Notes: generated by a model not told the origin, from the sequence alone. 64,000 nt of DNA from Candidatus Saccharimonadota bacterium (GCA_026707815.1 JAPOWB010000003.1:131380-195379), one strand, 5' to 3'. Numbered from the stretch's first letter, positions 1,825-59,767 are shown. Numbers and translations: made by a program.

Positions 1825-2319
1825 TTAGTGGTAATACTTGGTATCTATTAACCTGCCATCACCATCAAACCATTCTCTTTTAATCAACTCACCATCAGCA
1901 TCCCATTCATACTGGTAATACCGACTTAAATCACCATCAGCATCATACCATTCTGACTTTATCAGATTACTATCACCATCATATTCATATTGGTGATAAC
2001 TTGCTAAACTACCATCTGCATTATAGTCCTCTCTTTTAATCTGATTACCATCAGCATCATATTCATACTTATTGGATTGCCATAACTTGCCATCAGCACC
2101 ATAGTATTCAACACTAATCAAATTACCATCAGCATCACACAAAATATATTTTATTGTATCTGTATCTTTAGGACATTCTGTTTTATCTTTGGGGGTATCA
2201 ACTGGAGCTTTATTGAGTGGTTTTACTTCATCACCACTAGTTAAAGCATAGATGGTTATGCCAATGCCAACCAGTAAGACAATGATACTGGTAAGAATAA
2301 TGATTAGCTTTTTATTCAT
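1825..2319 (-). CDS. Membrane-anchored YD-like repeat protein (13-aa Y-D-x-D-G-N/K-L-I-K-x-E periodicity)
   Basis: Likely start is MNKKLIIILTSIIVLLVGIGITIYALTS (ATG at 2319; the track starts 11 codons earlier). Leader and KDKTECPKDTD module are near-identical to CDS 22557-23531. Body is YEYDADGNQIKRE / YDADGDLSRYYQ repeats, and the C-terminus DGDGRLIDTKYYH is shared with the paralog. Confidence 0.75.
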   Translation of the reverse strand: MNKKLIIILTSIIVLLVGIGITIYALTSGDEVKPLNKAPVDTPKDKTECPKDTDTIKYILCDADGNLISVEYYGADGKLWQSNKYEYDADGNQIKREDYNADGSLASYHQYEYDGDSNLIKSEWYDADGDLSRYYQYEWDADGELIKREWFDGDGRLIDTKYYH

Positions 2320-2398
2320 TAAATATAAGTATATCTCATAATCAATTACCAAAAAACAAACCCCCTAGTTAACATAATAATAATTACATTAAGTAGGA

Positions 2399-7472: not shown

Positions 7473-7482
7473 CCCCCCCCCC
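7473..7482 (+). repeat. C10 homopolymer tract
   Basis: Ten consecutive C directly after the TAA stop of CDS 7224-7472, in an AT-rich genome. Confidence 0.95.
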
Positions 7483-7575: not shown

Positions 7576-7731
7576 ATGAAGTATTTATCTATTTTATTCA
7601 CTATTTTATTAATTTGGATTTCTATCTTAATTATTGTCGCCGTCAGACCAGAAGAAACTGGTTTTGAATTATTCCTAACTGTTATTGTTTGCACTTTGGC
7701 TTTATTCTTAATCGGCTTCGTTAAAAAATAA
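7576..7731 (+). CDS. Small two-TM membrane protein (51 aa, below ORF-track cutoff)
   Basis: Own translation: MKYLSILFTILLIWISILIIVAVRPEETGFELFLTVIVCTLALFLIGFVKK*. Same hairpin-TM design as CDS 11878-12066. Confidence 0.4.
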   Translation: MKYLSILFTILLIWISILIIVAVRPEETGFELFLTVIVCTLALFLIGFVKK

Positions 7732-9404: not shown

Positions 9405-11705
9405 TTAGATCTTATTCTTCTTTCTGCGATTAGAAGAAACTGCAATAATTCCGATAATCACGGCAATAATAATGACCGTCATAATCACCCCAGTCATATC
9501 ATTATCATCATCTGTGGGCTTGGCTTCCTTATCCTCATTATTAGTAGATGAAGCGACTGCATCAGTTTCATCGATAATAATATTAGTGCCTTGATAGGAA
9601 ATTTTACCAGTAGCAGGATCAGTCACTCGAACACAAATACCATTCACAATCTCGCTAGCATTAATTACTCCTGAAGAATCTGCTTGGATTGGAGTAGCAT
9701 TTTCAAAAACTCCCTGATTACAGGGGATATCAGCATTGTTATGGGGGATGTATTCAAAATTTGACAGATCACTGCCATCAGATGAATTACCAAAAACTAA
9801 AAATTGATTTTCTTCAGCGTCGTAACTAACAGTTACCGTTGTTCCTAAATCAGAAGCTTGAGAATTAGTTGGCTGAATTGCAGTCTCACTTGGATTTGAA
9901 TCAACGCTCTCAACTTGAGAATTAGGGACGACTACTTCAGTAGTTGTTTCTTCTTCCTCATTGCTGGGAGCATCATCAATGTCGGCTGGTTGAGTTACCT
10001 CTCTATCATCACCATCAGTTGGGGTAGTCACTGGTGGAGTAGTTGGGGTCACATAGTTTAATTGAGCAATCTGAGATCTTTCATTGCCTCTATTGTCAGT
10101 GGCTTTGATGCAAATCCATCGACCATGTTCGGCTGATGTAGCAGTAATACTCACTTCAGCATCATTGTTTTTGTTATTGTAATTCTCTTTAAGAGAACAC
10201 TGATCATTTTGACTTGAAGCAAACTTCCAATCAACTGATTTAACTCCAGCAGTATCTTCAGCAGTAATCATCAGAGTGCTGCCTGAGACTTTCAAAGTCA
10301 TAGTTGGACTGGCACTATCTTCTACATATTCAATCCAAGCAGATGAAATCATGTTTTCACTATCACCTTCGTTACCTGATCCTTGCCAGCTAGTTATTGC
10401 TTCGCCCCTGTGATTGATACGCTCTACCAGTGTACCCACAAAACAGTATCTACTTCCGATATTTGCTTTGGATAAATCTATTTTCTGATTGTCAATAACT
10501 TTGACGCTTGTAATATCATTGGGATTTTTCTCCATGAACTCATAACAAGTATCATTGCCGGGATCCATTTCTGTCATATAAGCTCTCCATACTACTGGTG
10601 GTGATTCGAAAGCATCAAAGATGTCCAGTTTGCCGGGAATAGTTTTAACTATTAAAGTTTTATCATCTTCATAGGAAATACTTGTCTCGGGAGTTGGGTT
10701 TAAGATTACAGCATCATTAATCTCTATCGCTTCTGTCAAGATATTTTGTACACCTGCAGAAGAGTCATCCAAATCATTACTTAAATCTATTGAATTACCA
10801 AATTTATCTCTAATCATAAAATTGCTACCACCAATATAGTTCATACTAGCTGACCTCTCTAGCGAGTGGAAAAAGTTCGATATATCAAAGCGATATGTTG
10901 AAAAAGTAAGAGTTTGACCACGAGCTAATACTTGGTTGGCTGACAGCGTTGTTGGAAAACTTAAGTCCACATCAAGTTCAAGCACATAAGCCAAATTCTT
11001 TCTTAGAGTCCCTGGTTCAACCTTATTTTCTATATGAATACTAGGCATAAAACTGCGATCACTGTATCTCGCCGTTGTGCGGACTACAATTTCAACTTCT
11101 TCATCAAATTCAATTGAAAAACTAAATCTATCCCCAATATCGGTATAATCATATTTACCACTGATATCAACTTTCTGTTTGTTTTTCAATTTGGGTGGAG
11201 TTAAATCTATTCTAGTATCACTAACTAAGTAAACTGGATCGTAAAGAAGAGCAATCTCGGAAGTATCTCTATTATCCCTATAGACTGCTTCAAAACAAGC
11301 ATATTTATCACTAAAATCTAGAGTTGACTGATTGTCTGTTGTATCAGCATCAATAGTCATCGGTTGAGTAGTTCTTCTGCTAACATTGACTCCAGAGGCA
11401 ATATCAGTAGCATCTGATGCTATGGCATCTTCATCACAATCATCCCTCTCATCAACGGCAGCCACTTTAACGGTGGCTACCCTATGTTCGAGAGGAGATC
11501 TAATTTTAGCCACCAAGATGTTGCCAGTGCCTCTCGAAATATCTTGGATGGAACCACTAGGATGAGCATCGTCGTCGTGAGCTTTGACTAAATTGAGGGG
11601 GGGGGTAATCCCAGAAACGATTAATAGACCAACCAACCCTAGCAGAATAGATGACAAGACCGCCCGCTTTTTATTTACTAAATTTAATATATTTTTTTCA
11701 CGCAT
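9405..11705 (-). CDS. Surface protein with N-terminal signal/anchor, two-cysteine W...C...C modules, acidic Thr/Pro stalk and C-terminal TM anchor
   Basis: N-terminal hydrophobic LSSILLGLVGLLIVSG and C-terminal VIMTVIIIAVIIGIIAVSSNRRKKNKI. Modules such as VDWKFASSQNDQCSL...HGRWICIKATDNRGNE and FEYIPHNNADIPCNQ...NGICVRVTDPATG resemble the repeats of CDS 27709-31815. Confidence 0.8.
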   Translation of the reverse strand: MREKNILNLVNKKRAVLSSILLGLVGLLIVSGITPPLNLVKAHDDDAHPSGSIQDISRGTGNILVAKIRSPLEHRVATVKVAAVDERDDCDEDAIASDATDIASGVNVSRRTTQPMTIDADTTDNQSTLDFSDKYACFEAVYRDNRDTSEIALLYDPVYLVSDTRIDLTPPKLKNKQKVDISGKYDYTDIGDRFSFSIEFDEEVEIVVRTTARYSDRSFMPSIHIENKVEPGTLRKNLAYVLELDVDLSFPTTLSANQVLARGQTLTFSTYRFDISNFFHSLERSASMNYIGGSNFMIRDKFGNSIDLSNDLDDSSAGVQNILTEAIEINDAVILNPTPETSISYEDDKTLIVKTIPGKLDIFDAFESPPVVWRAYMTEMDPGNDTCYEFMEKNPNDITSVKVIDNQKIDLSKANIGSRYCFVGTLVERINHRGEAITSWQGSGNEGDSENMISSAWIEYVEDSASPTMTLKVSGSTLMITAEDTAGVKSVDWKFASSQNDQCSLKENYNNKNNDAEVSITATSAEHGRWICIKATDNRGNERSQIAQLNYVTPTTPPVTTPTDGDDREVTQPADIDDAPSNEEEETTTEVVVPNSQVESVDSNPSETAIQPTNSQASDLGTTVTVSYDAEENQFLVFGNSSDGSDLSNFEYIPHNNADIPCNQGVFENATPIQADSSGVINASEIVNGICVRVTDPATGKISYQGTNIIIDETDAVASSTNNEDKEAKPTDDDNDMTGVIMTVIIIAVIIGIIAVSSNRRKKNKI
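11597..11605 (-). repeat. C9 (coding-strand) homopolymer inside the 5' end of CDS 9405-11705
   Basis: att acc ccc ccc ctc encodes ITPPL, just after the signal/anchor segment. Confidence 0.95.
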
Positions 11706-11743: not shown

Positions 11744-11753
11744 CCCCCCCCCC
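11744..11753 (-). repeat. G10 (gene-strand) homopolymer 39 nt upstream of the start of CDS 9405-11705
   Basis: Ten consecutive C on the plus strand. On the gene strand the tract abuts a weak -35 (ATTAGA), then 17 nt, TAATAT, 9 nt and ATG. Confidence 0.9.
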
Positions 11754-11877: not shown

Positions 11878-12066
11878 ATGTTGAGAGATTTTTTACTATT
11901 TATAAAATATCCATACACTGCTGGGATTATTGCCATTATTTGGTTGGGGTCAGCTTGTTTTTTGGCTTTATCCGATAATATTGATTTAATTCAAGTTGTC
12001 ATCGTTGATCTTTTAACAACTGTTATTATTGCTATTTTTGGCTTCAAAGATAAAAAAGAAATCTAA
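11878..12066 (+). CDS. Small two-TM membrane protein (62 aa)
   Basis: Two hydrophobic helices (AGIIAIIWLGSACFLAL and LLTTVIIAIFGF); no known family. Confidence 0.4.
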   Translation: MLRDFLLFIKYPYTAGIIAIIWLGSACFLALSDNIDLIQVVIVDLLTTVIIAIFGFKDKKEI

Positions 12067-21295: not shown

Positions 21296-21625
21296 GTTGA
21301 AATTATTGCAGAGGCCATCGGAATTAAATCACATTTTTCATGTAATGATACTATCTTTACCTCAAACTCTAATAATTCAGCTAGAGAGAGATTGACAGGG
21401 CGAAGTCTGTATAGATTAGTCAAATCTCTTTTAAAAGAGCTGAATATAGATAAAGATATTCATAGTTTCAGACATTTTTTTGTTACCCAATTAATAGACA
21501 ATGGTTTTGAAATTATGCAGACAATGAAACTATCAAGGCATAAATCTTTACCGATGATGCAGGTTTATTATGATGAAAGGCAAAGCCTTGAATTTACTGA
21601 TGAAATGTTAAATAGTTTGAGATAG
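21296..21625 (+). pseudogene. C-terminal fragment of a tyrosine recombinase/integrase
   Basis: The open frame from 21296 has no plausible N-terminal domain. It reads LTGRSLYRLVKSLLKELNIDKDIHSFRHFFVTQLIDNGFEIMQTMKLSRHKSLPMMQVYYD, giving HxxR, a second His and a catalytic Tyr context. Confidence 0.7.
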
Positions 21626-21675: not shown

Positions 21676-21861
21676 GTGGTTAGCTTGATGTCTAATTACA
21701 AGCAATACCTTACCCAAGCCGAAGCAGATGCCTTTTTAAAATCAGTTGATGTCAATAGAGATAAACACATATCCCTTGCAGTAAAGAGTAAGCAAGGTTT
21801 AGATGCTATTACGAGTATTGCTTTAGGGGTTACTGGGTTATGTGGGGGGGGGCAGTATTGA
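21676..21861 (+). CDS. Hypothetical protein (61 aa) ending in a G9 tract
   Basis: ORF only. The last codons tgt ggg ggg ggg cag tat tga contain the homopolymer. Confidence 0.3.
   Translation: MVSLMSNYKQYLTQAEADAFLKSVDVNRDKHISLAVKSKQGLDAITSIALGVTGLCGGGQY
21844..21852 (+). repeat. G9 homopolymer tract 5 nt upstream of the -35 of the cassette promoter
   Basis: tgtGGGGGGGGGcagtaTTGATT. Confidence 0.95.
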
Positions 21862-21897: not shown

Positions 21898-22455
21898 ATG
21901 ATAAATAAAAATACTATTAAATTTCCTACAGATAATATAGAAAGACAATATAATGCTGATGATAATTTAGAAAGACATACCTATATTCGTATGATGGTAA
22001 AAAATAAATTAAACAACACCCTTAAATTTTCTAGAAATAATATAGAAAGACACTATGATGCTCTTGGTAATTTAAAAGGATATACCAGCTATGAATATAA
22101 TGATGATGATAGGTTAAAGTCGTATACCGAGGTTAAATGTGATGCTAATGGTAATCCGATTAAACAAGAACGATATGATGCTGATGGTCATTTAAAAGGA
22201 TATACCAACTATGAATATAATCGTGATGGTAGGTTAAAGTCGTATACCAAGTTTGAATGTGATGGTAATCTGATTACAAAAGAATACTATTATGCTAATG
22301 GTGAGAGGTTGAACAAAGAATACAAAGAATACTATGATACTGATGGTAGGTTAAAGTTCTATTTTAGGTATGAATATAATGGTGATGGTGATTTGATTGC
22401 AAAAGACAGCTATACTGGTGATGGTGATTTAGTAAATACCACGTATTACCACTAA
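21898..22455 (+). CDS. YD-like repeat protein without signal peptide
   Basis: Repeats YDALGNLKGYTSYEYNDDDRLKSY, CDANGNPIKQERYDADGHLKGY... and a C-terminus DGDLVNTTYYH. Confidence 0.75.
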   Translation: MINKNTIKFPTDNIERQYNADDNLERHTYIRMMVKNKLNNTLKFSRNNIERHYDALGNLKGYTSYEYNDDDRLKSYTEVKCDANGNPIKQERYDADGHLKGYTNYEYNRDGRLKSYTKFECDGNLITKEYYYANGERLNKEYKEYYDTDGRLKFYFRYEYNGDGDLIAKDSYTGDGDLVNTTYYH

Positions 22456-22493: not shown

Positions 22494-22525
22494 CCCCCCC
22501 CCTTAATTAGGGGGTTTTGTTTTTT
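22494..22525 (+). terminator. Intrinsic terminator-like hairpin whose 5' arm is a C9 tract
   Basis: CCCCCCCCC-TTAATTA-GGGGG followed by TTTTGTTTTTT. Lies between the two cassette genes. Confidence 0.65.
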
Positions 22526-22556: not shown

Positions 22557-23531
22557 ATGAATAAAAAGCTAATCATTATTCTTGCCAGCATCATTGTCTT
22601 ACTGGTTGGGATAGGTATAACCATCTATGCTTTAACTAGTGATGATGAAGTAAAAATAGTAAAATCTGATGATACTACAAACAATACGCCAGATACAGAT
22701 AAAGAAGCTCAAACTAGTAAGCCAGTTGATACTACTAAAGAAGTAAAGCCAGTTGATAAAGCTCCAGCTGATGCCCCCAAAGATAAAACAGAATGTCCTA
22801 AAGATACAGATTACAGAAAACATACTTGTGATACTGGTGGCAATGTGATTAAATCAGAAATCTATGATGATGGTAAGTTAGGGGGGTATGTTCAGTTTGA
22901 ATACAATGCTAATGGTAAGTTGATTAAACAAGATGTTTATGATACTGATGGTAATTTGGCTTGGACTGAACACTATGATGTAGATGGTAATTTGATTGAA
23001 ACTATCTCACATAAAGATAAAACAGAATGCCCTAAAGATACAGATATCAAAAAATATATTTGTGATGCTGATGGTAATGTGATTAAAAGAGAACACTATG
23101 ATGTTGATGGTAAGTTAAAGTGGTATTACAAATATGAATATGATGCTGACGGCAATGTGATTAAAAGAGAATGGCATAATTATAATGCTGATGGTAAGTT
23201 AAGGGGGTATTACAAATATGAATATGATGCTGATGGTAATGAGATTAAATATGAACACTATGATACTGATGGTAATTTAAGGGGATATAATAAGTCTGAA
23301 TATGATGCTGATGGTAATAGAGTTAAATTTGAATACTATGGTGCTGATGGTAATCTTATTCAGCAAGACCACTATGATGCTGATGGTAATGTGATTAAAA
23401 GAGAAAACTATGACGCTGATGGTAATTCAAAGGGATATGAGAAGTATGAATATGATGCTGATGGTAATCAGATTAAATCAGAATGGTTTGATGGTGATGG
23501 TAAGTTGATAAATACTAGGTATTACCACTAA
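22557..23531 (+). CDS. Membrane-anchored YD-like repeat protein with internal module duplication
   Basis: The leader MNKKLIIILASIIVLLVGIGITIYALTS matches CDS 1825-2319. The KDKTECPKDTD..C.. module occurs twice (nt ~22781 and ~23013). Long run of YEYDADGNxIKxE / YDxDGKLxGYYK repeats, ending DGDGKLINTRYYH. Confidence 0.8.
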   Translation: MNKKLIIILASIIVLLVGIGITIYALTSDDEVKIVKSDDTTNNTPDTDKEAQTSKPVDTTKEVKPVDKAPADAPKDKTECPKDTDYRKHTCDTGGNVIKSEIYDDGKLGGYVQFEYNANGKLIKQDVYDTDGNLAWTEHYDVDGNLIETISHKDKTECPKDTDIKKYICDADGNVIKREHYDVDGKLKWYYKYEYDADGNVIKREWHNYNADGKLRGYYKYEYDADGNEIKYEHYDTDGNLRGYNKSEYDADGNRVKFEYYGADGNLIQQDHYDADGNVIKRENYDADGNSKGYEKYEYDADGNQIKSEWFDGDGKLINTRYYH

Positions 23532-27708: not shown

Positions 27709-30700
27709 TTACACATAGTCTAAATCAGAAGAAGAGTCATGATCATCTAATCCACCATTGGAAGAATCATTTCTATGATGCTTCTTGCTCAAAGCTAGAA
27801 AGATTAAAGTCACAATCAAAAGAGCAACTAAAGCCCCTCCAATAATCAAGATTAGATCTTGGTTATCTGTCTCTTCCTCATCAGCTGGAGTTGACTCAGT
27901 TGTTTCAGCCTCATCGGTTGGTTTTTCTTCAGATGACGGTTGAGTTGACTCAGGCTGGGCAGCCTTATCCAAACTGACCGTTAAAGATTCATAAGTGTAA
28001 TTCCCCTTGGCATCAGCGACTCTGAAACAGTAAACTGCTCCGCTTGAGGCTTGATTGAGATTCACTTCGTTGCCTGATTTGACTAGACTGCTATTTCTGA
28101 AAGCTCTATAATCGCAAGCTTGATTATCTTTCAAAACAACATATTGCCAATTTTTAACATCTTCATCAGAAGTTGCCATGATGGTTTCAGCAGTTTGCTT
28201 GACCGTCACTTGAGGAGCTTTGGTATCAATGCCAGTCACAAAAATCTTAGCATGACCAACAATACCATTGTCAGCTACAACCTTGAAACAATACCAATAA
28301 CCATTACTACTCTCGTTTAGAATCAGCTTGTGGGCTGATTTGGAAGCTTCTGAGAATTCTAGCTGATTATCTGGGCTACAATCTATGTCAGTTCTTGATC
28401 TAAGCCACTGCCAAGTGTTGTTGTCAACATTATCAGCTGAGGCGGTCAAAGTAGTATTTCTTAGAGTCAGGCTAATAACTGGAGCTTCAAGATTAATCTC
28501 ATTTAAAACTATCCCCTTATAACCATAGTTACCATGTTTATCAGCTACTCGGAAACAATAATAAATGAAATCGCTATCATGGGTGGTCACATCAAAAGAT
28601 ATTTCAGATGATTCAACTTGGTTAAGCTTATCAAAAGTTAAATCTTCTCCTTGGCAATCTAGCTGCGTCTTGCTGTAAAAGTAACCCCAAGTTGTCACAT
28701 CTAAATCATCATCTGTACTCTCAATGGTTAGTAAAATATTATTCTGAGTAATCTTAATCGTTGGAGCTTGACGATCAATTCTGATTTTACTGTAAGTAGT
28801 TAGCCCTCGCTGGTTTGAAACCTTGAAACATAGCCAGTGATAAGCTGAGCCAAGATTCTTTACTTGTAAGTTAAGCTCTAGCGAATTATTGTGGTTTTTA
28901 ACAAACTGCAGGTTGCTATTGGGGCCACAATATGGCTCAGTCAGAGATAAAGCCCAAGCCCAAGTTGAGTAATTGACATTAGCTGAAGTTGAGCGAGCAA
29001 TAATCCTGCCCGCTGGAGTTTCGAGAGTGATGACTGGTGAACTTTGATCATCAACTTTACCAACGCTATAAAGAGCATAAATATAATTACCAGCATAATC
29101 AGCAACCTTGAAACATAACCAGTGATTATTATCTACTTCTCTTAATAACAATTGCCTATTAGCCGGCAAGCGAGTAATTAAAGAATTAGAATAAGTCTGA
29201 CAATCAACGCTTTGACTAAATTTAGCATACTGCCAAGTATCGTGATCAACATCTGTGGACGAAGAATTAATGGTTAAGATATTAGCTGTATCGTTGAACT
29301 TAAAGCCAATCACAGGAGTCGATAAATCATAGCGGTATTTGGCGTACCCATAATTGCGAGCATTACCAGCTTGGCTTGAAGTATCAGCTACTCGGAAGCA
29401 ATAGTAAGCTCCGTGTTGTGCATCAGAAATATTGCTAATAACAATCTTCTGAGTTGAAGATGTCAACAAATTAGTATTTACATCTGTATAAGTGACTTTA
29501 GAACAATCACCGGGATCAGAGCTGAAGGTTGCCCAAGCCCAACTGTAGCCATCAACATCATCGGCGGTTGTACTAACCTCGATGACTCGAGCTTGAGATT
29601 TTTGGATAACTTTCAGAGCCGGTGGATTATCAATAGTAGTAATTTGGTTGCTTTTAGCATAGCCGTAGTTACCGGCTTTGTCAGCCACTCGGAAACAGTA
29701 ATATCTGTCACTATCGCTTTCACTGAGAGTTACTGTATTGTTCTGGCTATTAGCCCGATTAAAGCTTAAATCTTTATCACAGTCAAAATCATCATTGACT
29801 TGACTGCGAGCATACTGCCAAGAATTGACATTAATGTCTGTTGCCTTAGTAGTAGCTGTTAATGTTGAGCCTTTTTGCCCAACTTCAACTACAGGGGCTG
29901 TAGCATCAAAGGTTTTGATACGAATTTTACCGTAACCGAAGAAATCAAGATTGTTTAAAACTCGGAAGCAAAACCAATAATTAATATCATCTTCAACTAA
30001 ATTCAAAGTCTGATCGTCAAAGCTTCGCCAAGTCAAATTGGGAGCAACAGTTCTACAATTAGATGGCTGGTTGGTTCGAGACACTCGAGCATAACGCCAA
30101 GAATCTTTATCAATAGCCACATTATTGCTGACTTGAACTGTCAAGACAGATCCTTTTTGAGTCATACTAATAGTTGGTGTGGCAGTATTCAAAGAAGTAA
30201 CATGATAAGCATCGCTATAACCAACATTGCCGTATTGATCCTCAACTTTAAAGCAAAAGTAATCATTGACATCATTGCTATCTAGTCTAATTTGAGAGCC
30301 TCGATTAACAGTTAAATCTTCAAAAGTATCCTCATCGCATTCCAAATCATCTTCATCTTCAACCCATCGCCAAGTGCTACTTTGAGGTCGATCTTTGCTA
30401 GAGGAGGTAGCCCACAATAAATTATTGGTTTGACGCAATTTAATTGTCGGAGCAACAACGTCAATTTTGATAGATTTATAAGCATAATTACCAACTAAAC
30501 TATCAGCCACTCTCAAGCATAGCCATTGATCCTCAACGTCTTCGTCAGCTCCAGTATCAGTCAAATCAATAATAGTATAGCTTCGTTTAGTCGTGGAACG
30601 ATTTTCAAGCGTCAGACCAACAGAAGACCATCCAGTCAATTGAGAATGACAATCATCATCTGTCTCAATCACATATTGCCAAGAATTTCCATCAACTTCA

Positions 30701-31815
30701 ACCGCATCATAAGCATTGGCTTTGACAGTTAAACGGGATTGTTGAAGACCACTTAAAGTGGGCGGATTGTTGATGGTGGTAGCACTGACATGGGAATAAG
30801 CGTAATGACCAACATTATCAGCTACTCGGAAACAATAAGTCCGACCTGCAGTTGACTGAGTTAGGGTAATAACTGCTCTATCTCGACTAATAACCGCACC
30901 TTTGAAAGTATCCAAGTCTTTGAAACTAGTGTATCGACTATTACATTTAGAAGCTGAAATAGTCGCATACTGCCAAGAATCTAAATTAATATTGGCATTA
31001 CTATCAGGTTGACTATCATTATTGTCATCTTGGAAGACTGAAACTGTTAATATGGCATTATTTTGGTTAACGCTTAATTGTGGTGAGCGAGTATCAACTT
31101 GAAAACCAGCTGTATTATAGCCCACATTACCCTGATCATCAGTCAGCTTAAAGCAGTAGTATTTACCGTGATTACCATCACTGAGAGGCATAATCAGAGT
31201 TTTGGTTGTAGCGACATTTTGCTCAGTAAAAGATCCTGACTCAGCACTACAATCACTAACAGCTGTATCAGAGATAAGAACTTCCCAAGTGGCGATTTGA
31301 CTAATATCATCAGCTGTTGCCACTAAGTTATTGGCTTGTTGCTTGACGGCGACTACTGGAGCTTGTTGATCAATAGTGAACAAAGCGTAGTACTCTTTAG
31401 TGCTAGCATCGTTATTCGGGCGTTGATACAAAACCTTCAAACAATAATATGAATGTCCAACCCCAAGAGTAGCAGTGAAAGTCGCTTGATTAGCAACATT
31501 ATCCCAATCAGCTAATCTTGTCGTTCCAAAGCCTTGAGCAGAACAAGACTGATTGTTGACCACTTGGCTATAGTGGATATGTGTCTCAGCCTGGGAATTG
31601 GTAAAATATTTGACTTCGTAACCTTCAGGGGCTTCTACAGTAGCAGTCACCTCTGCATTTGTTCTAGAAAATGTAACCGTCGGAGCAACCGCTTGGACTA
31701 ATAACCACCCCAAATAAATAGATGAAATAAGCACAATAGAAGCTAGAAAAACTAAATAGCTAACCCATATAGTTTTTCGAGTTCGTGGCTGAGCAAGATT
31801 ATTCACTTGATTCAA
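27709..31815 (-). CDS. Giant surface protein: N-terminal signal/anchor, 13 tandem ~95-aa two-cysteine repeats, acidic stalk, C-terminal TM anchor and acidic cytoplasmic tail
   Basis: Repeat consensus is APxIxVxQxxNxLTATxxDxDVDxxSWQYAxxxxxxDCxxxxxF...(25-35 aa)...YYCFRVADKAGNYGY. C-terminal TM is LILIIGGALVALLIVTLIFLAL. Likely true start is GTG 31806, 9 nt after AAGGAG (31816-31821), rather than the tracked TTG 31815. Confidence 0.85.
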   Translation of the reverse strand: MNQVNNLAQPRTRKTIWVSYLVFLASIVLISSIYLGWLLVQAVAPTVTFSRTNAEVTATVEAPEGYEVKYFTNSQAETHIHYSQVVNNQSCSAQGFGTTRLADWDNVANQATFTATLGVGHSYYCLKVLYQRPNNDASTKEYYALFTIDQQAPVVAVKQQANNLVATADDISQIATWEVLISDTAVSDCSAESGSFTEQNVATTKTLIMPLSDGNHGKYYCFKLTDDQGNVGYNTAGFQVDTRSPQLSVNQNNAILTVSVFQDDNNDSQPDSNANINLDSWQYATISASKCNSRYTSFKDLDTFKGAVISRDRAVITLTQSTAGRTYCFRVADNVGHYAYSHVSATTINNPPTLSGLQQSRLTVKANAYDAVEVDGNSWQYVIETDDDCHSQLTGWSSVGLTLENRSTTKRSYTIIDLTDTGADEDVEDQWLCLRVADSLVGNYAYKSIKIDVVAPTIKLRQTNNLLWATSSSKDRPQSSTWRWVEDEDDLECDEDTFEDLTVNRGSQIRLDSNDVNDYFCFKVEDQYGNVGYSDAYHVTSLNTATPTISMTQKGSVLTVQVSNNVAIDKDSWRYARVSRTNQPSNCRTVAPNLTWRSFDDQTLNLVEDDINYWFCFRVLNNLDFFGYGKIRIKTFDATAPVVEVGQKGSTLTATTKATDINVNSWQYARSQVNDDFDCDKDLSFNRANSQNNTVTLSESDSDRYYCFRVADKAGNYGYAKSNQITTIDNPPALKVIQKSQARVIEVSTTADDVDGYSWAWATFSSDPGDCSKVTYTDVNTNLLTSSTQKIVISNISDAQHGAYYCFRVADTSSQAGNARNYGYAKYRYDLSTPVIGFKFNDTANILTINSSSTDVDHDTWQYAKFSQSVDCQTYSNSLITRLPANRQLLLREVDNNHWLCFKVADYAGNYIYALYSVGKVDDQSSPVITLETPAGRIIARSTSANVNYSTWAWALSLTEPYCGPNSNLQFVKNHNNSLELNLQVKNLGSAYHWLCFKVSNQRGLTTYSKIRIDRQAPTIKITQNNILLTIESTDDDLDVTTWGYFYSKTQLDCQGEDLTFDKLNQVESSEISFDVTTHDSDFIYYCFRVADKHGNYGYKGIVLNEINLEAPVISLTLRNTTLTASADNVDNNTWQWLRSRTDIDCSPDNQLEFSEASKSAHKLILNESSNGYWYCFKVVADNGIVGHAKIFVTGIDTKAPQVTVKQTAETIMATSDEDVKNWQYVVLKDNQACDYRAFRNSSLVKSGNEVNLNQASSGAVYCFRVADAKGNYTYESLTVSLDKAAQPESTQPSSEEKPTDEAETTESTPADEEETDNQDLILIIGGALVALLIVTLIFLALSKKHHRNDSSNGGLDDHDSSSDLDYV

Positions 31816-36369: not shown

Positions 36370-38271
36370 ATGGTAAAAAAAGAGACTTTAGCCAGTGATT
36401 CAAAAGTTGAAAATTGTGAAAATTTGACTGATTCAAATCAGCTTGAAAGCATTCTGTCTTTACTAGAATGGATTGTCAAAAATGATGCCAATCCTGAATC
36501 CTTGGAGATGATTCAAAAAACGATTGAAGATAAATTCTCAGAGATTGATGATATTGCTCAATATTCTGATAGATTAAATCAACTAAGAAACCAAATATCT
36601 GATTTATCCCAACCAAACTCTGTCGGTGATTTAGTAGAAACTAATCCTGAAACTAAAATTAAGTCCATCACTCCAGCTGGGATTGATTATTTAAAGCCAA
36701 TTGTCACTAATAGTGATAGTAATGTTTATGCCTTTAAAGATTCGTACAGTCCAATCACTATTGCTGCCAGTATGGCAAGATTAAGTCGACGAGGTGATGA
36801 TTTGAGGATTACTTTATTGGAGGAATTTAGTGATTCTGAATTGGCTAAAGATGAATCCTTGCTTAAAAGAGTTATATCGGCTTACGGCGATGATTCTGTC
36901 CAACAATTAGCTGGACAACATGTCGTCGTTGAGGGCGCTAGCAATTTACTGACCAAAAAATTAGAATGGGGTCGTCTAGCTAGTTATTTAGAACAATCAA
37001 CCCGTTATATTTTCTTTGACCAAAAAGATCAATCGGGAGCATATAAATATGTCACTCCACCGGAAGTCTTAAAAGACGATCGACTAGCTGATTTTTATCA
37101 AAACGTCTGTGATAGATTATTCGTTAATTATTCTGAATTAGTCCGAGCTTTGACTGATTACAGCCGAACTGTTAATCCCAGACCTCAAGACAGAGGCGAG
37201 GTTATTGCTTGGCAGAATGCGACTAGAGCAGCTGCTTGTGATGTAGCTCGCAATATTTTGCCGGTTGCTACTAAATCAACAGTTGGTATTTTTGCTTCAG
37301 GACAAGCTTTAGAATACTTAATTATGAGACTCTTGAGCGATGACCTAGCCGAAGCCCAGCAAACAGGTCAAGCTATCTTAAATGAAAGCCGTCAAACCAT
37401 GGGAGTCTTTTTGGAAAGAGCTGATTTACCTGATCGAGGTGGAGCTTATTCCATGTATCAAGCTCAAACTCGGCAATCTCTCCGCAAAATTATTAAAGAG
37501 TATCCAGAACTGCAACCAGCTTCCGATGTCTCGGAAGAAGAAAAATCTGAGATTATTCATCCATTCGCTGAATTAATGAATTACAACTACCCCAATGAAT
37601 TAGATTTAGTTGCTGATATGCTTTATGATCAGACTCATCTTTCATTAGAGGATTTAAGGACACTCATTGATCAGTGGACGGTTGGAGCAAAATTAGAAGT
37701 TTTCCAAGCCTATATTGGCGACCGACTCAATCGTCGACATAAACCAGGTCGAGCCTTGGAAAAGATTCATTATGAATGGGATATTGTCTCAGATTATGGC
37801 ATCTTCCGAGACTTACAACGACATCGTATGATCGAAGATTTAACTTGGCAAACTCTAACTCCTCAAACCGTATCCTTTGAAAACTATCCAATCCCTGATC
37901 TCGTTGACAAAACTAACTTTCAAAGCTTATGGCAGCAATCATTTCAGCTGTCTGAACGCCTATTCAATGTCCTGCTAGAAGAAACCAGCGATCAGGTGGC
38001 TCAGTATGCCACTCTCTTGGGACATTACATGCGCTGGAAAATGAGTTATAACGCTCGCCAAGCCTTTCATATTCATGAATTAAGAACTACACCTCAGGGA
38101 CATCCTAGTTATCGACGATTGGTTAATCAAATGCATGAACAAATTAGCAAAATACATCCTCTCATAGGAGAAGCTATGAAATTCGTTAATCAAGATGAAG
38201 ATCCAGCCCTAGCTCGTTTAGCTGCTGAACGTTATCAGCAATATAAACTAAATCAGTTAACCAATAACTAA
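36370..38271 (+). CDS. Tandem-domain ThyX-like (FAD-dependent thymidylate synthase family) protein, 633 aa
   Basis: First half has LEWGRLASYLEQSTRY: the S..E.S.RY part of the ThyX motif is kept but RHR is replaced by WGR. Second half has DLQRHRMIED: RHR is kept but the serine part is lost. Genomic context is dcd-tmk. Confidence 0.6.
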   Translation: MVKKETLASDSKVENCENLTDSNQLESILSLLEWIVKNDANPESLEMIQKTIEDKFSEIDDIAQYSDRLNQLRNQISDLSQPNSVGDLVETNPETKIKSITPAGIDYLKPIVTNSDSNVYAFKDSYSPITIAASMARLSRRGDDLRITLLEEFSDSELAKDESLLKRVISAYGDDSVQQLAGQHVVVEGASNLLTKKLEWGRLASYLEQSTRYIFFDQKDQSGAYKYVTPPEVLKDDRLADFYQNVCDRLFVNYSELVRALTDYSRTVNPRPQDRGEVIAWQNATRAAACDVARNILPVATKSTVGIFASGQALEYLIMRLLSDDLAEAQQTGQAILNESRQTMGVFLERADLPDRGGAYSMYQAQTRQSLRKIIKEYPELQPASDVSEEEKSEIIHPFAELMNYNYPNELDLVADMLYDQTHLSLEDLRTLIDQWTVGAKLEVFQAYIGDRLNRRHKPGRALEKIHYEWDIVSDYGIFRDLQRHRMIEDLTWQTLTPQTVSFENYPIPDLVDKTNFQSLWQQSFQLSERLFNVLLEETSDQVAQYATLLGHYMRWKMSYNARQAFHIHELRTTPQGHPSYRRLVNQMHEQISKIHPLIGEAMKFVNQDEDPALARLAAERYQQYKLNQLTNN

Positions 38272-38338: not shown

Positions 38339-38587
38339 CTAGAAAAACAAAACAGCTTCGACAGATTGTTGAGGCACGAAATATATTGCCGATTGGTAAT
38401 GATCCCCCTGGAGATAGACTCCATTTGAACTGACAAAAATAATTCTCTTAATTAAAGGCAACTGCTGAAATTTGAAATAAGCAATTTGTCCGACTTGGAA
38501 TTGGTTAGTTTTTCGCAAAACAACTAATTGCTTATTCTTCAAAGTTGGATACATGCTCTGACCCCGAATTTTACGAATTAAAAACAT
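38339..38587 (-). CDS. sodX: S26-type signal-peptidase-like protease, probable Ni-SOD maturation protease
   Basis: IRGQSMYPTLKNKQLVV...LIKRII gives the Ser/Lys dyad context. Lies immediately downstream of sodN. Confidence 0.65.
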   Translation of the reverse strand: MFLIRKIRGQSMYPTLKNKQLVVLRKTNQFQVGQIAYFKFQQLPLIKRIIFVSSNGVYLQGDHYQSAIYFVPQQSVEAVLFF

Positions 38588-38684
38588 GACACAAGTTATT
38601 TTAAGGAATACCTAAAGCATTAATTCACAAGTATTAGGAATTGAAGCCTTGAGACAAATTAACATCATGCCTAAAGAGAGTTGT

Positions 38685-39056
38685 TCAGGCTGCCTCTTTA
38701 AAGATTTTATCCAAAGCTTCAATTTGATTAATAAAATCTTCAACGATTTTAATATCAGCATTTTGCTTAATTAGGCTGCATTGCTGAGCCATAATATAAA
38801 GCTGATTATGTAACTGGGGATTAGCTTGGTAATGATGAGCTTTGAAATAATCGCTCCAAAGTATATAGATTTGTTGTTTGCAAATCTGAGTATGCTCTTC
38901 TTTAAGCATAATCAGACGAATATATTGAGCTTCTGAGGGAGTTAAATCTAGTAGTTTTTTAGCTAATTTCAAGCAAGTCAGAGCTGAATTTTTTAAAGTA
39001 TCTGTTTCATAATGTCCACATGGACCATCGCAATGGGCATCAACTATTTTAAACAT
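38685..39056 (-). CDS. sodN: Nickel superoxide dismutase precursor
   Basis: MFKIVDA|HCDGPCGHY is the Ni-hook HCxxPCGxY behind a short leader. LWSDYFK and LDKIF are conserved as in Streptomyces SodN. Confidence 0.85.
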   Translation of the reverse strand: MFKIVDAHCDGPCGHYETDTLKNSALTCLKLAKKLLDLTPSEAQYIRLIMLKEEHTQICKQQIYILWSDYFKAHHYQANPQLHNQLYIMAQQCSLIKQNADIKIVEDFINQIEALDKIFKEAA

Positions 39057-40297: not shown

Positions 40298-40825
40298 TTA
40301 TTTTGGCTTTTTATCTGTTGTTGCAGCTGTATCATCGGTAGAATCATCTGCTTGAGCTGTTTGTAGTTGAGCTTCTGAGTCAGATTCTGAAGTTTGGCTT
40401 GCTTCAGAAGTTGATTGATTGTCATTGACAACAGTAGCAGTCTGATCATCAGCCTTAGTATCTTTAGTAATTGTCTGAGATTCATCTGAGTTAGCTTTTG
40501 ATGCAGTCTCAGATGATTGATTGCGGCGAAGTTTATCAGGATATTTGATTTTGGATTGTTTAATCGCTGGTTTCTTTACCCATTTAGGTAAATCTATCTT
40601 TTGGCTGGTTAAAAAATAAACCACTCTTTGAGAGGGTTGCGCTCCATGCTTTAAATAATGCTCAACTTTAGCTAAATCAATGCCATGCTCTTTAGTGTGA
40701 GGATTATAAAAACCTAAATTGGCAATAACTTTGCCTGAGGTTGGTGTACGACGAGAATCTTGAACTACCATCCGAAACTGGGCATGCTTTTTCCGACCTG
40801 TTCTTTGTAATCTAATGCTAACCAT
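40298..40825 (-). CDS. rpsP: 30S ribosomal protein bS16 with long low-complexity C-terminal extension
   Basis: MVSIRLQRTGRKKHAQFRMVVQDSRRTPTSGKVIANLGFYNP. Confidence 0.9.
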   Translation of the reverse strand: MVSIRLQRTGRKKHAQFRMVVQDSRRTPTSGKVIANLGFYNPHTKEHGIDLAKVEHYLKHGAQPSQRVVYFLTSQKIDLPKWVKKPAIKQSKIKYPDKLRRNQSSETASKANSDESQTITKDTKADDQTATVVNDNQSTSEASQTSESDSEAQLQTAQADDSTDDTAATTDKKPK

Positions 40826-40977
40826 AATTGCCCAATATATAAAATTGACGCTGAAAAGTCATTCTAGCTAGCTTTAATAAATTTGTCAAAAATCCAAAAA
40901 CTCCCTTCAAAACAATCTGCCATATAATTTGCTATAATCTATATAAAATGGTATAAAAGTAGGAATTTATAGAAGCA

Positions 40978-41511
40978 ATGTCTAAATTTGAATCATTTAC
41001 CCCCCCCCGCCACCGCGATCTTATAGTTGATATCACTGAAAGATTGGATCAGCCAAATAATTGTATCAATGGTAATTTTGAGATTAATAAAAATTATCAG
41101 CCAGAAACAACTAAGATTTCTGAAGCCACCAAAACTCAACCAGAAATTGTAGAGATTATCCCTTCCCCGACTATCGTTGATTGCAATCATTTGCCAAAAA
41201 TGAAAGTCAGGCTGAAAAACAGAAAAATTGCTGTTGTCAGTAAAAAACCAACCCCCATTAAAAAAGACTGGCATCAAGATGCTGCTTGTCGGGGTTTAAT
41301 TGATTTATTCTATAAGGAATATCCAACTAAAGAAGATACAACTAAAGTGAAAGACTTGTGCTGTCGTTGCCCAGTCGTTTCTTCCTGTTTAGAAACTGGG
41401 TTGACTGCTAATCGGGGAATCCCAGAAAAATTTGGAATTTGGGCTGGTTTCAACTCAAGAGAACTCTCGAAAATTCATCGAGCCCGGCAGGCAGATAGAA
41501 AATTCAGCTAA
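40978..41511 (+). CDS. WhiB-like (Wbl) Fe-S transcription factor with ~95-aa N-terminal extension
   Basis: WHQDAACRG...(x)...LCCRCPVVSSCLETGL...FGIWAGFNSRE gives four Cys in C-Xn-C-X2-C-X5-C spacing plus the G[IV]WGG-like turn. Confidence 0.75.
   Translation: MSKFESFTPPRHRDLIVDITERLDQPNNCINGNFEINKNYQPETTKISEATKTQPEIVEIIPSPTIVDCNHLPKMKVRLKNRKIAVVSKKPTPIKKDWHQDAACRGLIDLFYKEYPTKEDTTKVKDLCCRCPVVSSCLETGLTANRGIPEKFGIWAGFNSRELSKIHRARQADRKFS
41000..41008 (+). repeat. C9 homopolymer in codons 8-11 of the WhiB-like gene
   Basis: ttt acc ccc ccc cgc (FTPPR). Confidence 0.95.
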
Positions 41512-43388: not shown

Positions 43389-43622
43389 TTAACTAGAAGG
43401 TCTAACTGGCTTTTTAGGGGTCACAGCTTTAGTTTTAGGAGAACTCTTAGTCAATTTAGTTGTGGACTCAGCTTTTAAAACGGCTTTATGTTTACGAAGC
43501 TGTCTAGGTGTCCAAACTAAAACGGGGCTAATCCTATTAACCGAACGCCTTAATTTGGCATGCAAATGTGATCGACGATGACCAGTCTTGCTTCTTGTAT
43601 TACGTTTCTTGGGGACAGCCAT
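43389..43622 (-). CDS. rpmF: 50S ribosomal protein bL32 with basic C-terminal extension
   Basis: MAVPKKRNTRSKTGHRRSH. Confidence 0.9.
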   Translation of the reverse strand: MAVPKKRNTRSKTGHRRSHLHAKLRRSVNRISPVLVWTPRQLRKHKAVLKAESTTKLTKSSPKTKAVTPKKPVRPSS

Positions 43623-57760: not shown

Positions 57761-59767
57761 CTAATTGCGATTGAAAAATTCTGACTCGTAATCTAAAACT
57801 TGCTGATAATACTCTCGAATATCTAAGGGATCTTGAATGTGTCTTTGATCAAAGGTTTGATCATCATAATTATCATAATCCAACCGAAGGTGAAAATTCT
57901 GATTATCTTCTGAATGATGAACTAAAGTAATCGGCAAATTAGTATGTTTATCAAAAGTCACTTGAAAATTATTGGGCAGAGGAAATTCATCTGATTGCAT
58001 TTTAGATAATCGCTGATAATAATTCGGCAGAGGTTTTTGCAAAATCTCCTGATAAATCTGTGTATATAACTCATACAATTTTTGGTAATCAATAGCTAGG
58101 TTACATCTCACCTCTGAAGTAGTAATAAATTGACAAGAATCCTCATCCAGCTCATAAGCCGAAGTAGTTTGAAGCAAACTTTGGAGCTGTTTGTAATTTT
58201 GAGAAGTGGTAATATTAAAGCTTGGTAGCAATATTATGTATTGATGAGCTGAATAATGTCTTAAGAAATTAATAACATAGTTAAGAATTTGGCTATTTTG
58301 ATTAAAATCTAAATCTGATTGTTGTTGCAGCTTCAATAGAGCTTCCAAGTCACTCCAGCGCTGAGAAAAGTCAGTACTTAATTCTAGGCGTTGTTTATCT
58401 ATAACTAAAGAGTTCAATTTGAAATAAGCTTTACCATCAGGCTGATAAATTGTTGAAATATTAATGATTAGATTGCTTCTTTGACCATCATCTTGAATAC
58501 TGATAATGTCAAATTTGAATTGAGTTTCAAGATAAGGTACGTCTCCTTGAGGCGGATATTGGATCTTTAAGTTATTATCAATAGTGGCTGATGCCTTAGC
58601 TAAATTAGAAGCTGAATTGGAGTTGGGGATAATCGATTGAATATTCTCCTGCCGTAGATCAACTTGAAGATTGTGATTATCAACTTGCAAGAGATTAACT
58701 AACACATCGTTGAGTTGCTGAGAATGATTAGAGCTTTGACTTTGCAACAAGCCTTGAAAACGAGGCCAAGCTAGATAAATGACTAAACCTATCGTTCCAA
58801 TAACCAATAAAGCAGTCAGAAAACTATAAATTATAAAACTTCTTCTTAACTTAGGCTTAGGTACAGTCTGGTCAGAAACTGGGAAAGTCTTCTCAGCTAA
58901 AGCTCCTACAACATCAGAAACTGCTGGGGCTGAACTGGGCGCTAAATTAAAACTATCAACTGGAGCTAATTGTCCCGCCTGCATGACTGATGTATCGAGA
59001 GGCGGTAGACTTTCGAGATTAAAGTTAGACAAAGTAGAATTCGAAGCTTTAGGTATCGGAGGCGGAGGTATACTCCCAGATAAGAGTTTAGATTGAGGCT
59101 TTGATTGCTTGATTTGAGGATTCTTCGAAAAATTATCAGGCAATGGTGTAGCTACTGATTGGTTAGCACTATATGTGGTTTCTGTGTCGGAATTATGAGG
59201 TTTGGAATTCTTAAAATTGATTGATGGCGATAAATGATTATCGGTATTTAAACTTTGTTGACTGAGTATATTTTTTGTTCGTTGATTAGTTGAAAAATCA
59301 GGATCAATTGGAATAGATTTTTGAGTTGATGATTTAAATGGCGTGCTAAGTGGTGGATGTGACATCGTTTTAGACTGACCACTAGCATTAACTTGGACTT
59401 CATCGAGTTGGTGTTCATCTTCGGTTTGTTCTTTATTATTAGCAGTTTTACCGATAGTTATGGCATTCTCTTTTAAATCTTTTTCTGATATATGCCTAGA
59501 GCGGACTTTAGGTTTGGTGGTTGAAGCTGTTTGTTCTTCAGCAGTCTGGCTAACATCAATTTTAGGCTGAATAATTTTTTTGGTTGGTTTGAGAGGAATT
59601 TCCCAAATAGCCGAGGCATGAAAAGGTTTCTCAATTATTTGCGAAGAAGTTGAACTCTTTGGAGTTTGATCAACGCTAGTTAACTTCAACTTACTAGCTG
59701 GTGATTGAACATGAATAATTTCACCCGGCTGAAGTTCATGAATAGTCTTGTTAGTAGTTCGATTCAT
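57761..59767 (-). CDS. Bitopic hypothetical protein: Ser/Thr/Pro/Gln-rich cytoplasmic N-half, one TM, extracytoplasmic C-domain (668 aa)
   Basis: TM FIIYSFLTALLVIGTIGLVIYLAW near aa 310-335. No catalytic motif recognised. Confidence 0.5.
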   Translation of the reverse strand: MNRTTNKTIHELQPGEIIHVQSPASKLKLTSVDQTPKSSTSSQIIEKPFHASAIWEIPLKPTKKIIQPKIDVSQTAEEQTASTTKPKVRSRHISEKDLKENAITIGKTANNKEQTEDEHQLDEVQVNASGQSKTMSHPPLSTPFKSSTQKSIPIDPDFSTNQRTKNILSQQSLNTDNHLSPSINFKNSKPHNSDTETTYSANQSVATPLPDNFSKNPQIKQSKPQSKLLSGSIPPPPIPKASNSTLSNFNLESLPPLDTSVMQAGQLAPVDSFNLAPSSAPAVSDVVGALAEKTFPVSDQTVPKPKLRRSFIIYSFLTALLVIGTIGLVIYLAWPRFQGLLQSQSSNHSQQLNDVLVNLLQVDNHNLQVDLRQENIQSIIPNSNSASNLAKASATIDNNLKIQYPPQGDVPYLETQFKFDIISIQDDGQRSNLIINISTIYQPDGKAYFKLNSLVIDKQRLELSTDFSQRWSDLEALLKLQQQSDLDFNQNSQILNYVINFLRHYSAHQYIILLPSFNITTSQNYKQLQSLLQTTSAYELDEDSCQFITTSEVRCNLAIDYQKLYELYTQIYQEILQKPLPNYYQRLSKMQSDEFPLPNNFQVTFDKHTNLPITLVHHSEDNQNFHLRLDYDNYDDQTFDQRHIQDPLDIREYYQQVLDYESEFFNRN

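Follow-up and report, generated by a model that had tools for sequence, protein, structure and literature searches.

We analyzed a 64,000-nucleotide stretch of DNA (JAPOWB010000003.1:131380-195379; hereafter, the window), in which an open reading frame (ORF) at positions 40978-41511 encodes a WhiB-like (Wbl) protein and carries, at codons 8-11, a homopolymeric run of nine cytosines (C9). The ORF and the run had been singled out in an initial annotation made from the sequence alone, and the coordinates given there for the ORF, the tract and the other listed features are all correct. From its start codon, the gene runs atg tct aaa ttt gaa tca ttt acc ccc ccc cgc. The features of the locus, numbered from the first letter of the window and with lengths in nucleotides (nt) or amino acids (aa), are the following:

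40930-40938 (+): extended -10-like element TGCTATAAT, a candidate promoter ~40 nt upstream of the ATG, by sequence reading
40978-41511 (+): Wbl gene, long form, 177 aa with C9, ATG start and TAA stop
40988-40990 (+): TTG in the +1 frame, the in-frame start with C7 or C10 (gene calls P0002, P0004 and P0006; loci L002-L006)
41000-41008 (+): poly-C tract, C9 in the window, codons 8-11; C7, C9 or C10 across contigs
41009-41193 (+): orphan N-terminal extension after the tract, aa 11-72 (codon usage, AlphaFold2, homology search)
41044-41046 (+): in-frame TTG (L23), a hypothetical tract-independent start by sequence reading, product of 155 aa
41194-41244 (+): beta-hairpin before the Wbl domain, aa 73-89 (strands 74-78 and 83-88), from the AlphaFold2 model; common to the few closest relatives
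41200-41202 (+): in-frame ATG (M75, in KMKVRL), a possible start of a 103-aa short form by sequence reading, at the start of the confident fold
41269-41463 (+): Wbl domain, aa 98-162 (Pfam, PDB sequence matches, alignment, AlphaFold2 model, Foldseek)
41287-41289, 41359-41361, 41368-41370 and 41386-41388 (+): cluster-ligand codons C104, C128, C131 and C137, respectively
41434-41448 (+): GIWAG turn, G153-I-W155-A-G157
within the Wbl domain (+): aromatic patch, with W98 as AP1, F111/Y112 as AP2-3 and W155 in the remaining position, a sequence-level assignment
41464-41508 (+): C-terminal basic helix, to aa 177, ending in ...KIHRARQADRKFS (AlphaFold2 model, helix 160-176)

The assignment of the product to the Wbl family is borne out by a hidden Markov model (HMM) search, in which the Pfam model Whib (PF02467; profile positions 1-61 of 65) matched aa 98-162 of the 177-aa ORF with E=1.5e-11 and 45.1 bits, against a gathering cut-off of 23.6 bits; in an NCBIfam search of the same protein, no model matched. 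The defining features of the family are four cluster-ligating cysteines, a Gly-rich beta-turn, and the aromatic patch AP1-4 (W3, F17, F18 and W60 of WhiB1), which in WhiB1 binds region 4 of sigma-A (PMC13013590). In the protein analyzed here, the cysteines, spaced C104-X23-C128-X2-C131-X5-C137, align with those of WhiB, WhiB3 and WhiB1; the turn, for which we used the pattern G[VI]W[GA]G between helices 3 and 4, is found as GIWAGF at aa 153-158; and W98 lies six residues ahead of the first cysteine, matching the spacing in WhiB1. When the protein was aligned with 65 of its matches (66 sequences), W98, C104, C128, C131, C137 and G153 were invariant, and F111, W155 and G157 were at least 90% conserved. 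Sequence searches of the PDB retrieved Streptomyces WhiB (8dy9_H, E=2e-5), WhiB3 and WhiB1. The AlphaFold2 model has a predicted local distance difference test score (pLDDT) of 88-95 across ~aa 70-177, and the top seven Foldseek matches in the PDB are all WhiB1 and WhiB3 structures (template modeling (TM) score 0.65-0.76, target-normalized; probability 1.00), the best being WhiB1 bound to sigma-A region 4 (6onu_G) and WhiB3 (8cwt), with a target-normalized TM score of 0.75. Thus, by HMM, motifs and predicted fold, this is a true Wbl protein. Functionally, a Wbl is expected to bind a [4Fe-4S] cluster and to dock to the His-Pro pair in region 4 of the primary sigma factor; judging by every Wbl studied so far, the protein analyzed here would carry an Fe-S cluster on its four cysteines and would contact region 4 of that sigma factor through the aromatic patch. 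No sigma region 4.2 motif was found in the window, so that the rpoD gene of this organism is not located there.

The first ~95 residues had been described as unrelated. This stands for ~70 of them, given that, among 1.84 billion representative proteins, no credible homologue of residues 1-70 was found; the beta-hairpin at aa 73-89 is also present in the few closest relatives. A 4108-aa protein (P0007) that came up as an N-terminal homologue was rejected because the apparent similarity comes down to one weak 37-aa match (35% identity), counted once for each of 11 identical repeats. With codon-usage log-odds derived from 34 long window ORFs, aa 11-74 reach 0.275 per codon in the Wbl frame, compared with -0.35 and -1.43 in the two alternative frames; for reference, the Wbl domain scores 0.24, and the other genes score 0.355 +/- 0.135 in frame and -1.0 off frame. 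The same region contains no stop in the 64 codons of the Wbl frame, with 2 and 10 stops in the other two frames of the plus strand. In the AlphaFold2 model, pLDDT is below 50 at aa 9-37, and the confident fold begins at ~aa 73, beside Met75. Among the contigs described below, the extension has accumulated 3 non-synonymous and 3 synonymous substitutions, too few to estimate the ratio of non-synonymous to synonymous rates.

Homology to other proteins is confined to the C-terminal part. A HMMER scan of the 1.84 billion representative proteins yielded 2022 matches at E<=1e-3, all to the Wbl domain, and none at E<1e-30 except the protein itself. The nearest relative, P0009, is a 142-aa protein with 32-38% identity, depending on the alignment, from a contig with a guanine-plus-cytosine (GC) content of 36%, where its gene adjoins msrB and a gene for a class I aminoacyl-tRNA synthetase, probably leuS. 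The few closest relatives align only from ~aa 58-73 onward. Two of the matches have an architecture unusual for the Wbl family: P0008 (L010 5001-6443, on a metagenomic contig of 50% GC) combines four Wbl-like domains in one polypeptide and P0010 combines three, with canonical domains alternating with degenerate ones that lack the GxWxG turn. Both carry a short beta-like segment ahead of the domain, the counterpart of which in our model is the hairpin at aa 74-88.

Actinophage Wbls (104 phage records at E<=1e-3, from Mycobacterium, Gordonia and Streptomyces phages) show at most 38% identity to the protein, and over the domain, actinophage and actinobacterial Wbls reach ~54% identity at most. 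Word-indexed protein searches recovered the protein's own cluster, P0009 and four weak matches, with no named relatives from Saccharibacteria or the Candidate Phyla Radiation (CPR). Scans of the species-representative genomes of GTDB, a collection that does not include this species, gave no matches to either the Wbl alignment or the adjacent RNase III. In JGI metagenomes, an exact 25-nt flank had no match, and the protein alignment retrieved only an ordinary Wbl from a 64% GC contig (L025); a scan of IMG/VR found two ordinary Wbls with 28-36% identity, on contigs of 50% and 65% GC, and nothing closer than P0009. Because the phage Wbls are at most 38% identical and the GTDB, JGI and IMG/VR scans gave nothing closer, any transfer from Actinobacteria or their phages must be old, and the lineage is very sparsely sampled.

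The identical protein on record is MCY4088705.1, annotated as [quoted passage not shown], and variant proteins come from two further metagenome-assembled genomes (MAGs) with the same organism label. A host outside Actinobacteria is thus named in the NCBI records of three MAGs, which are the source of the label; the sample names ROBB21 and SHAF22 suggest sponge metagenomes as the origin. The GC content of the window is 36.1%. On one side, the Wbl gene is flanked by thyX, sodN, trmD, a gene for a KH protein and rpsP, and on the other side, by rnc, nusB, an rpmF-like gene and leuS, with dnaK, dnaJ, ligA, uvrC, recA and rny located further away. The order rpsP-Wbl-rnc(-nusB) is constant in nine contigs, the longest of which spans 243 kb, and no phage genes were detected near the Wbl gene. 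Because its codon usage fits that of the window genes, the Wbl gene is native to this AT-rich genome rather than a stray actinobacterial or phage fragment. As recently as 2026, the Wbl family has been stated to be exclusive to Actinobacteria and actinophages (PMC13013590), and whiB has been used as a marker for calling phages actinophages (bioRxiv 10.1101/2023.05.30.542503). The gene described here, with a host named Candidatus Saccharibacteria in three MAG records, departs from this distribution, and full-text literature searches turned up no report of a Wbl in Saccharibacteria, Patescibacteria or CPR.

The poly-C run had been proposed to be a slippage tract. A survey across near-identical strains supports this proposal: the flanks of the tract are identical in all nine contigs, and the run itself occurs in three lengths, each with a particular in-frame start:

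C9, in the window, L001, L007 and L008: in-frame start ATG 40978
C7, in L002 and L003: in-frame start TTG 40988 (+1 frame)
C10, in L004, L005 and L006: in-frame start TTG 40988 (+1 frame)

Correspondingly, the six members of the 90% protein cluster have two types of N-terminus, MSKFESFTPPRH (177 aa) and MNHLPP(P)RH, the latter comprising the C7 product (MNHLPPRH..., 173 aa) and the C10 product (MNHLPPPRH..., 174 aa). In the comparison of L004 with L007, C10 versus C9 is the sole difference over 6.5 kb. The four differences between L002 and L008 in 3.5 kb all lie within 20 nt of the tract (approximately, window positions 41000-41022) and include, besides C7 versus C9, the substitutions R13C and L15F, a cluster suggestive of hypermutation at this site or of a small patch of recombination beside the repeat. 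Each allele recurs across independent samples and assemblers, with C7 found in Logan SRR10996932 and ENA ERZ27276918, and C10 in three ENA assemblies. The tract is thus a hypermutable slippage tract. A look-up through a neighboring gene returned the same contigs and no new alleles. The folding of RNA around and downstream of the tract is not significant (z=0.27), and no Rfam family was found at the tract.

The consequences for the reading frame differ from those initially expected, namely, that any change by one nucleotide would abolish the full-length protein. This is not the case for C10 (three contigs) nor, for a change of -2, for C7 (two contigs), where TTG 40988 rescues the frame; the prediction is retained only for C8 and C11, with which no ATG, GTG or TTG start is available upstream and the frames opened by the ATG and the TTG end, by sequence reading, after 15 and 13 codons, respectively. 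The suggestion that an internal methionine could give a short form finds some support in the confident fold starting at ~aa 73 and in the alignment of relatives from ~aa 58-73, and M75 remains a candidate start; a 103-aa product from M75 would contain everything that is conserved. An exact look-up of the 155-aa (L23) and 103-aa (M75) products of four haplotypes among 15 billion called proteins found none.

Upstream of the gene, the TGCTATAAT element is kept in every contig that reaches that far. A consensus promoter scan called no promoter on the plus strand and found no -35 match. If this candidate is the promoter of the Wbl gene, the tract would lie ~55-60 nt into the transcript. Across the ORF starts of the window, Shine-Dalgarno sequences of the GGAG type are rare, and a TATAAT-like box is found 2-12 nt ahead of the ATG of many genes (for example, at 21898, 22557, 50573, 51216 and 56106), a combination that suggests frequent leaderless or Shine-Dalgarno-independent initiation. 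Because most of the window genes lack a Shine-Dalgarno sequence, the ribosome-binding site cannot decide the choice of the start in the Wbl gene.

The Wbl tract is one of several in this genome. The G/C runs of the window are bimodal in length, with six runs of 9-10 nt, none of 8, one of 7 and seven of 6. The expected number of G or C runs of at least 9 nt is 0.02 under a model of independent, identically distributed positions and 0.04 under a first-order Markov model, which makes the 9-10-nt runs ~150-300-fold over-represented; the longest A/T runs are of 8 nt. The five long runs other than that of the Wbl gene are as follows (no strand is given for those in intergenic positions):

7473-7482: C10 directly behind the stop codon of an 82-aa ORF, with a 51-aa membrane-protein ORF starting ~95 nt further downstream
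11597-11605 (-): C9 on the coding strand at approximately codons 34-37 (..GITPPLN..) of a 766-aa surface protein (ORF 9405-11705)
11744-11753: C10 on the plus strand (G10 on the minus strand), 39 nt upstream of the surface-protein start; G9 in another haplotype
21844-21852: G9, 46 nt upstream of an RHS-repeat-like ORF (21898-22455)
22494-22502: C9 between two RHS-repeat ORFs, forming, by sequence reading, the 5' arm of a terminator-like hairpin

The 766-aa protein (9405-11705, -) combines a hydrophobic segment near the N-terminus with a membrane anchor at the C-terminus, and belongs to no Pfam family. Its tract is C8 in L011 (5773-5780), where a 702-aa protein is called, and C9 in L013 (5773-5781), where the protein has 766 aa, and this is the sole difference between the two contigs in 8.5 kb. 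In contrast, the C6/C7 runs in tsaE and recA are constant in length, and one is broken by a synonymous T in some strains. The hairpin at 22494 consists of C9-TTAATTA-GGGGG followed by a T-run. The six tracts suggest a genome-wide system of contingency loci in a Saccharibacteria MAG, and literature searches found no paper describing G/C-tract contingency loci in Saccharibacteria or CPR.

Several small ORFs lie next to these tracts. Two hydrophobic ones without a Pfam family (7576-7731, +, 51 aa, and 11878-12066, +, 62 aa), located ~95-125 nt downstream of the C10 tracts, may be further tract targets. Small proteins with RHS/YD repeats (and DUF2963) are encoded at 1825-2352 (-), 21898-22455 (+) and 22557-23531 (+); one has an N-terminal membrane anchor, two of the three ORFs are flanked by G/C tracts, and for the 185-aa RHS-like ORF, no record was found in the protein look-up. 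At 21392-21625 (+), a C-terminal fragment (77 aa) of a tyrosine recombinase is encoded (Phage_integrase, E=2.8e-8), just upstream of a 57-aa ORF (21688-21861, +) whose end directly follows the G9 tract. A reading of the 57-aa ORF as the N-terminal fragment of an integrase was considered and rejected, the ORF having no Pfam support, so that only the neighboring 77-aa fragment is integrase-like; the two ORFs beside the RHS-like genes may represent a decayed mobile element.

Taking these observations together, we lean, if only slightly, toward the interpretation of the Wbl tract as a contingency locus that grades Wbl expression, that is, a stochastic dial on the amount or the isoform of the regulator. 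Under this interpretation, slipped-strand mispairing during replication would alter the length of the C-run and move the Wbl frame between three states; we infer the start codons used in each state and the resulting expression levels. With C9 (or C6 or C12), the gene is in frame with the 5'-proximal ATG at 40978, and high expression of the long form is predicted. With C7 or C10, it is in frame only with TTG 40988, and lower expression of a product with a slightly different N-terminus is predicted: translation from the ATG then runs through a dead-end ORF of 17 codons in another frame, which overlaps the TTG located ten bases downstream, and initiation of the long form would be weaker as a result. 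With C8 or C11, the long form would be lost, leaving, at most, a core form initiated at TTG 41044 or ATG 41200. The state of the tract would be stochastic, heritable and reversible, and the Wbl tract would be part of a genome-wide contingency set otherwise located in or beside surface-protein genes.

Several points weigh against this interpretation. No C8 or C11 allele is present among the ten contigs on record, all of which keep an upstream start in frame, so that the OFF state of this gene is a prediction, although an OFF allele was seen in the surface-protein gene; with only ~3-4 independent length changes sampled, the absence of OFF alleles is statistically uninformative either way. The alleles come from assembly consensus sequences, which cannot show switching within a population; contig pairs that are possibly two assemblies of one sample do differ at tracts, which is suggestive only. 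The tract is absent from P0009, the only other relative, at whose locus there is no G/C run of 7 nt or more. None of the candidate starts of the Wbl gene is preceded by a good Shine-Dalgarno sequence, as is the case for most of the window genes. Finally, if the ATG and the TTG were equally efficient, or if the true start were TTG 41044, the tract would be nearly neutral.

This last possibility is the rival explanation that survives best, and we consider it a serious, if unlikely, alternative: the tract would be hypermutable yet near-neutral, with the Wbl protein made from TTG 41044 or ATG 41200, or else made equally from the ATG and the upstream TTG. The run would then lie in a 5' leader or in a dispensable disordered tail of the protein, in a genome that generates or tolerates G/C runs. 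Such an arrangement would fit a protein in which the folded, conserved part starts only at ~aa 73, the relatives begin to align at ~aa 58-73, the low-confidence segment at aa 9-37 follows the start, and both substitutions in codons 11-22 are non-synonymous. Likewise, the finding that five of the nine contigs are outside the ATG frame is easier to accommodate if the first residues are unimportant, and at least one other tract, that at 22494, resembles a part of a terminator more than a switch. However, aa 11-74 score as coding and remain free of stops over 64 codons in a 36% GC genome, and an upstream start is in frame with every allele seen. Furthermore, the sister tract is unambiguously intragenic in the surface-protein gene, where it has a C8 frameshift allele, and the excess of 9-10-nt runs combined with the near absence of runs of 7-8 nt argues for selection over drift.

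Another mechanism, by which slippage during transcription or ribosomal frameshifting on the C-run would restore the frame in part of the transcripts, such that every DNA allele would yield mixed products and the length of the tract in the DNA would matter little, appears improbable to us. Long homopolymers do cause slippage of RNA polymerase, which is best documented for A/T runs. By comparison, slippage on C runs of 9-10 nt is less documented, the insignificant fold reported above means that there is no frameshift-stimulating structure downstream of the tract, and slippage of this kind would make a switch leaky rather than remove it. There is very little chance that the length differences are homopolymer sequencing or assembly errors, or that the contig is mis-binned actinobacterial or actinophage DNA: homopolymers are error-prone, L004/L007 and L011/L013 may each be two assemblies of one sample, and the phylum label derives only from NCBI record names, but every allele recurs in independent samples and assemblers, the housekeeping C6/C7 runs are stable in length, and mis-binning is hard to reconcile with the 36% GC, the core genes (rpsP, trmD, rnc, nusB, leuS, dnaK, ligA), the similar codon usage of the Wbl gene, contigs of up to 243 kb, the single label of three MAGs, and an identity to actinophage and actinobacterial Wbls of no more than ~54% over the domain.

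Cultivated Saccharibacteria are obligate epibionts of Actinobacteria. TM7x is an example of such an epibiont (PMC12369343). A native Wbl in Saccharibacteria breaks the Actinobacteria-only rule and prompts one to ask with which sigma factor it interacts. In a broader and more doubtful scenario, a CPR epibiont would have acquired the Wbl long ago from the actinobacterial world and placed it under a poly-C switch together with surface proteins. If this were true, subpopulations would differ stochastically in a Wbl regulon coupled to host-attachment antigens, and the case would be the first of a Wbl beyond Actinobacteria and actinophages as well as the first phase-variation system based on simple sequence repeats (SSR) to be described in CPR. 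In a more extreme version of this scenario, the Wbl, with its orphan tail, would act on the sigma-A of the host and not on the symbiont's own sigma factor. The dense set of length-polymorphic tracts indicates that, in an uncultivated symbiont of ultra-small size, surface proteins and possibly a regulator appear to be under the control of classical contingency loci.

Some other genes of the window have unusual features as well. A nickel superoxide dismutase (Sod_Ni, E=3e-27) and an adjoining small S24/S26-type peptidase are encoded at 38339-39056 (-), 2 kb from the Wbl gene; we take this pair to be typical of Streptomyces and marine bacteria, and it may be another actinobacterial-type trait. 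ThyX (Thy1; 36370-38271, +) has 633 aa with two matched stretches, ~2-3 times the usual length. Ribosomal protein S16 (40298-40825, -) carries a low-complexity acidic/polar C-terminal tail of ~90 aa, and a 77-aa L32-like protein (43389-43622, -) has a basic tail. Two large ORFs, of 1368 aa (27709-31815, -) and 668 aa (57761-59767, -), belong to no Pfam family.

Compared with the solved actinobacterial Wbls, Streptomyces WhiB (8dy9_H), and Mycobacterium tuberculosis WhiB1 (6ono/6onu) and WhiB3 (8cwr/8cwt), the protein has the same four-cysteine motif, the same Gly-rich turn (GIWAG here and GVWGG there), the same aromatic patch (W/F-F(Y)/W), the same four-helix fold and a basic C-terminal helix. 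It differs in the low identity of only 23-29%, in the ~95-aa N-terminal addition that consists of ~70 orphan, low-confidence residues and the beta-hairpin, in the 5' poly-C tract, and in the Saccharibacteria label of the host. The protein cannot be assigned to any of the WhiB1-7 subfamilies (best PDB E-values from 2e-5 to 1e-3). What it shares with the WhiB-family factors of actinophages is the type of a small stand-alone Wbl domain that moves horizontally; it differs in that all of the phage matches are below 40% identity and that the gene described here is located among core genes.

A phase-variable global regulator had been expected to be unusual, and it is, but it is not without precedent. 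Homopolymer frameshifts switch a regulator gene in Bordetella pertussis (the C-run of bvgS) and in Campylobacter jejuni (flgR/flgS), and the Mod phasevarions are another precedent for phase-variable regulation. As in bvgS and flgR/flgS, where the regulon thereby becomes stochastic, a G/C or A/T homopolymer is located within a regulator gene and a change of its length shifts the frame; those genes, however, belong to two-component systems of Proteobacteria and Campylobacterota, whereas here the regulator is a Wbl of a CPR bacterium, and a start is kept in two of the three frames. Another of the closest parallels is lic1A, a lipopolysaccharide gene of Haemophilus influenzae, where a CAAT repeat following alternative start codons results in strong, weak or no expression. 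In both cases, the repeat comes just past two start codons in two frames, but in the Wbl gene, the repeat is a mononucleotide C-run, the second start is a TTG, and the graded expression is a prediction. At the level of the genome, poly-G/C contingency loci are found in small-genome, host-associated bacteria such as Campylobacter, Helicobacter and Neisseria. The genome analyzed here resembles these in having many G/C runs of at least 8 nt in an AT-rich background, at the 5' ends or promoters of surface-protein genes, and in the length polymorphism between near-clonal genomes, and differs in that some tracts are intergenic and one is part of a terminator-like hairpin. Overall, a Wbl regulator and an SSR contingency locus are both of known kinds; it is their combination, in an unexpected phylum, that is new.

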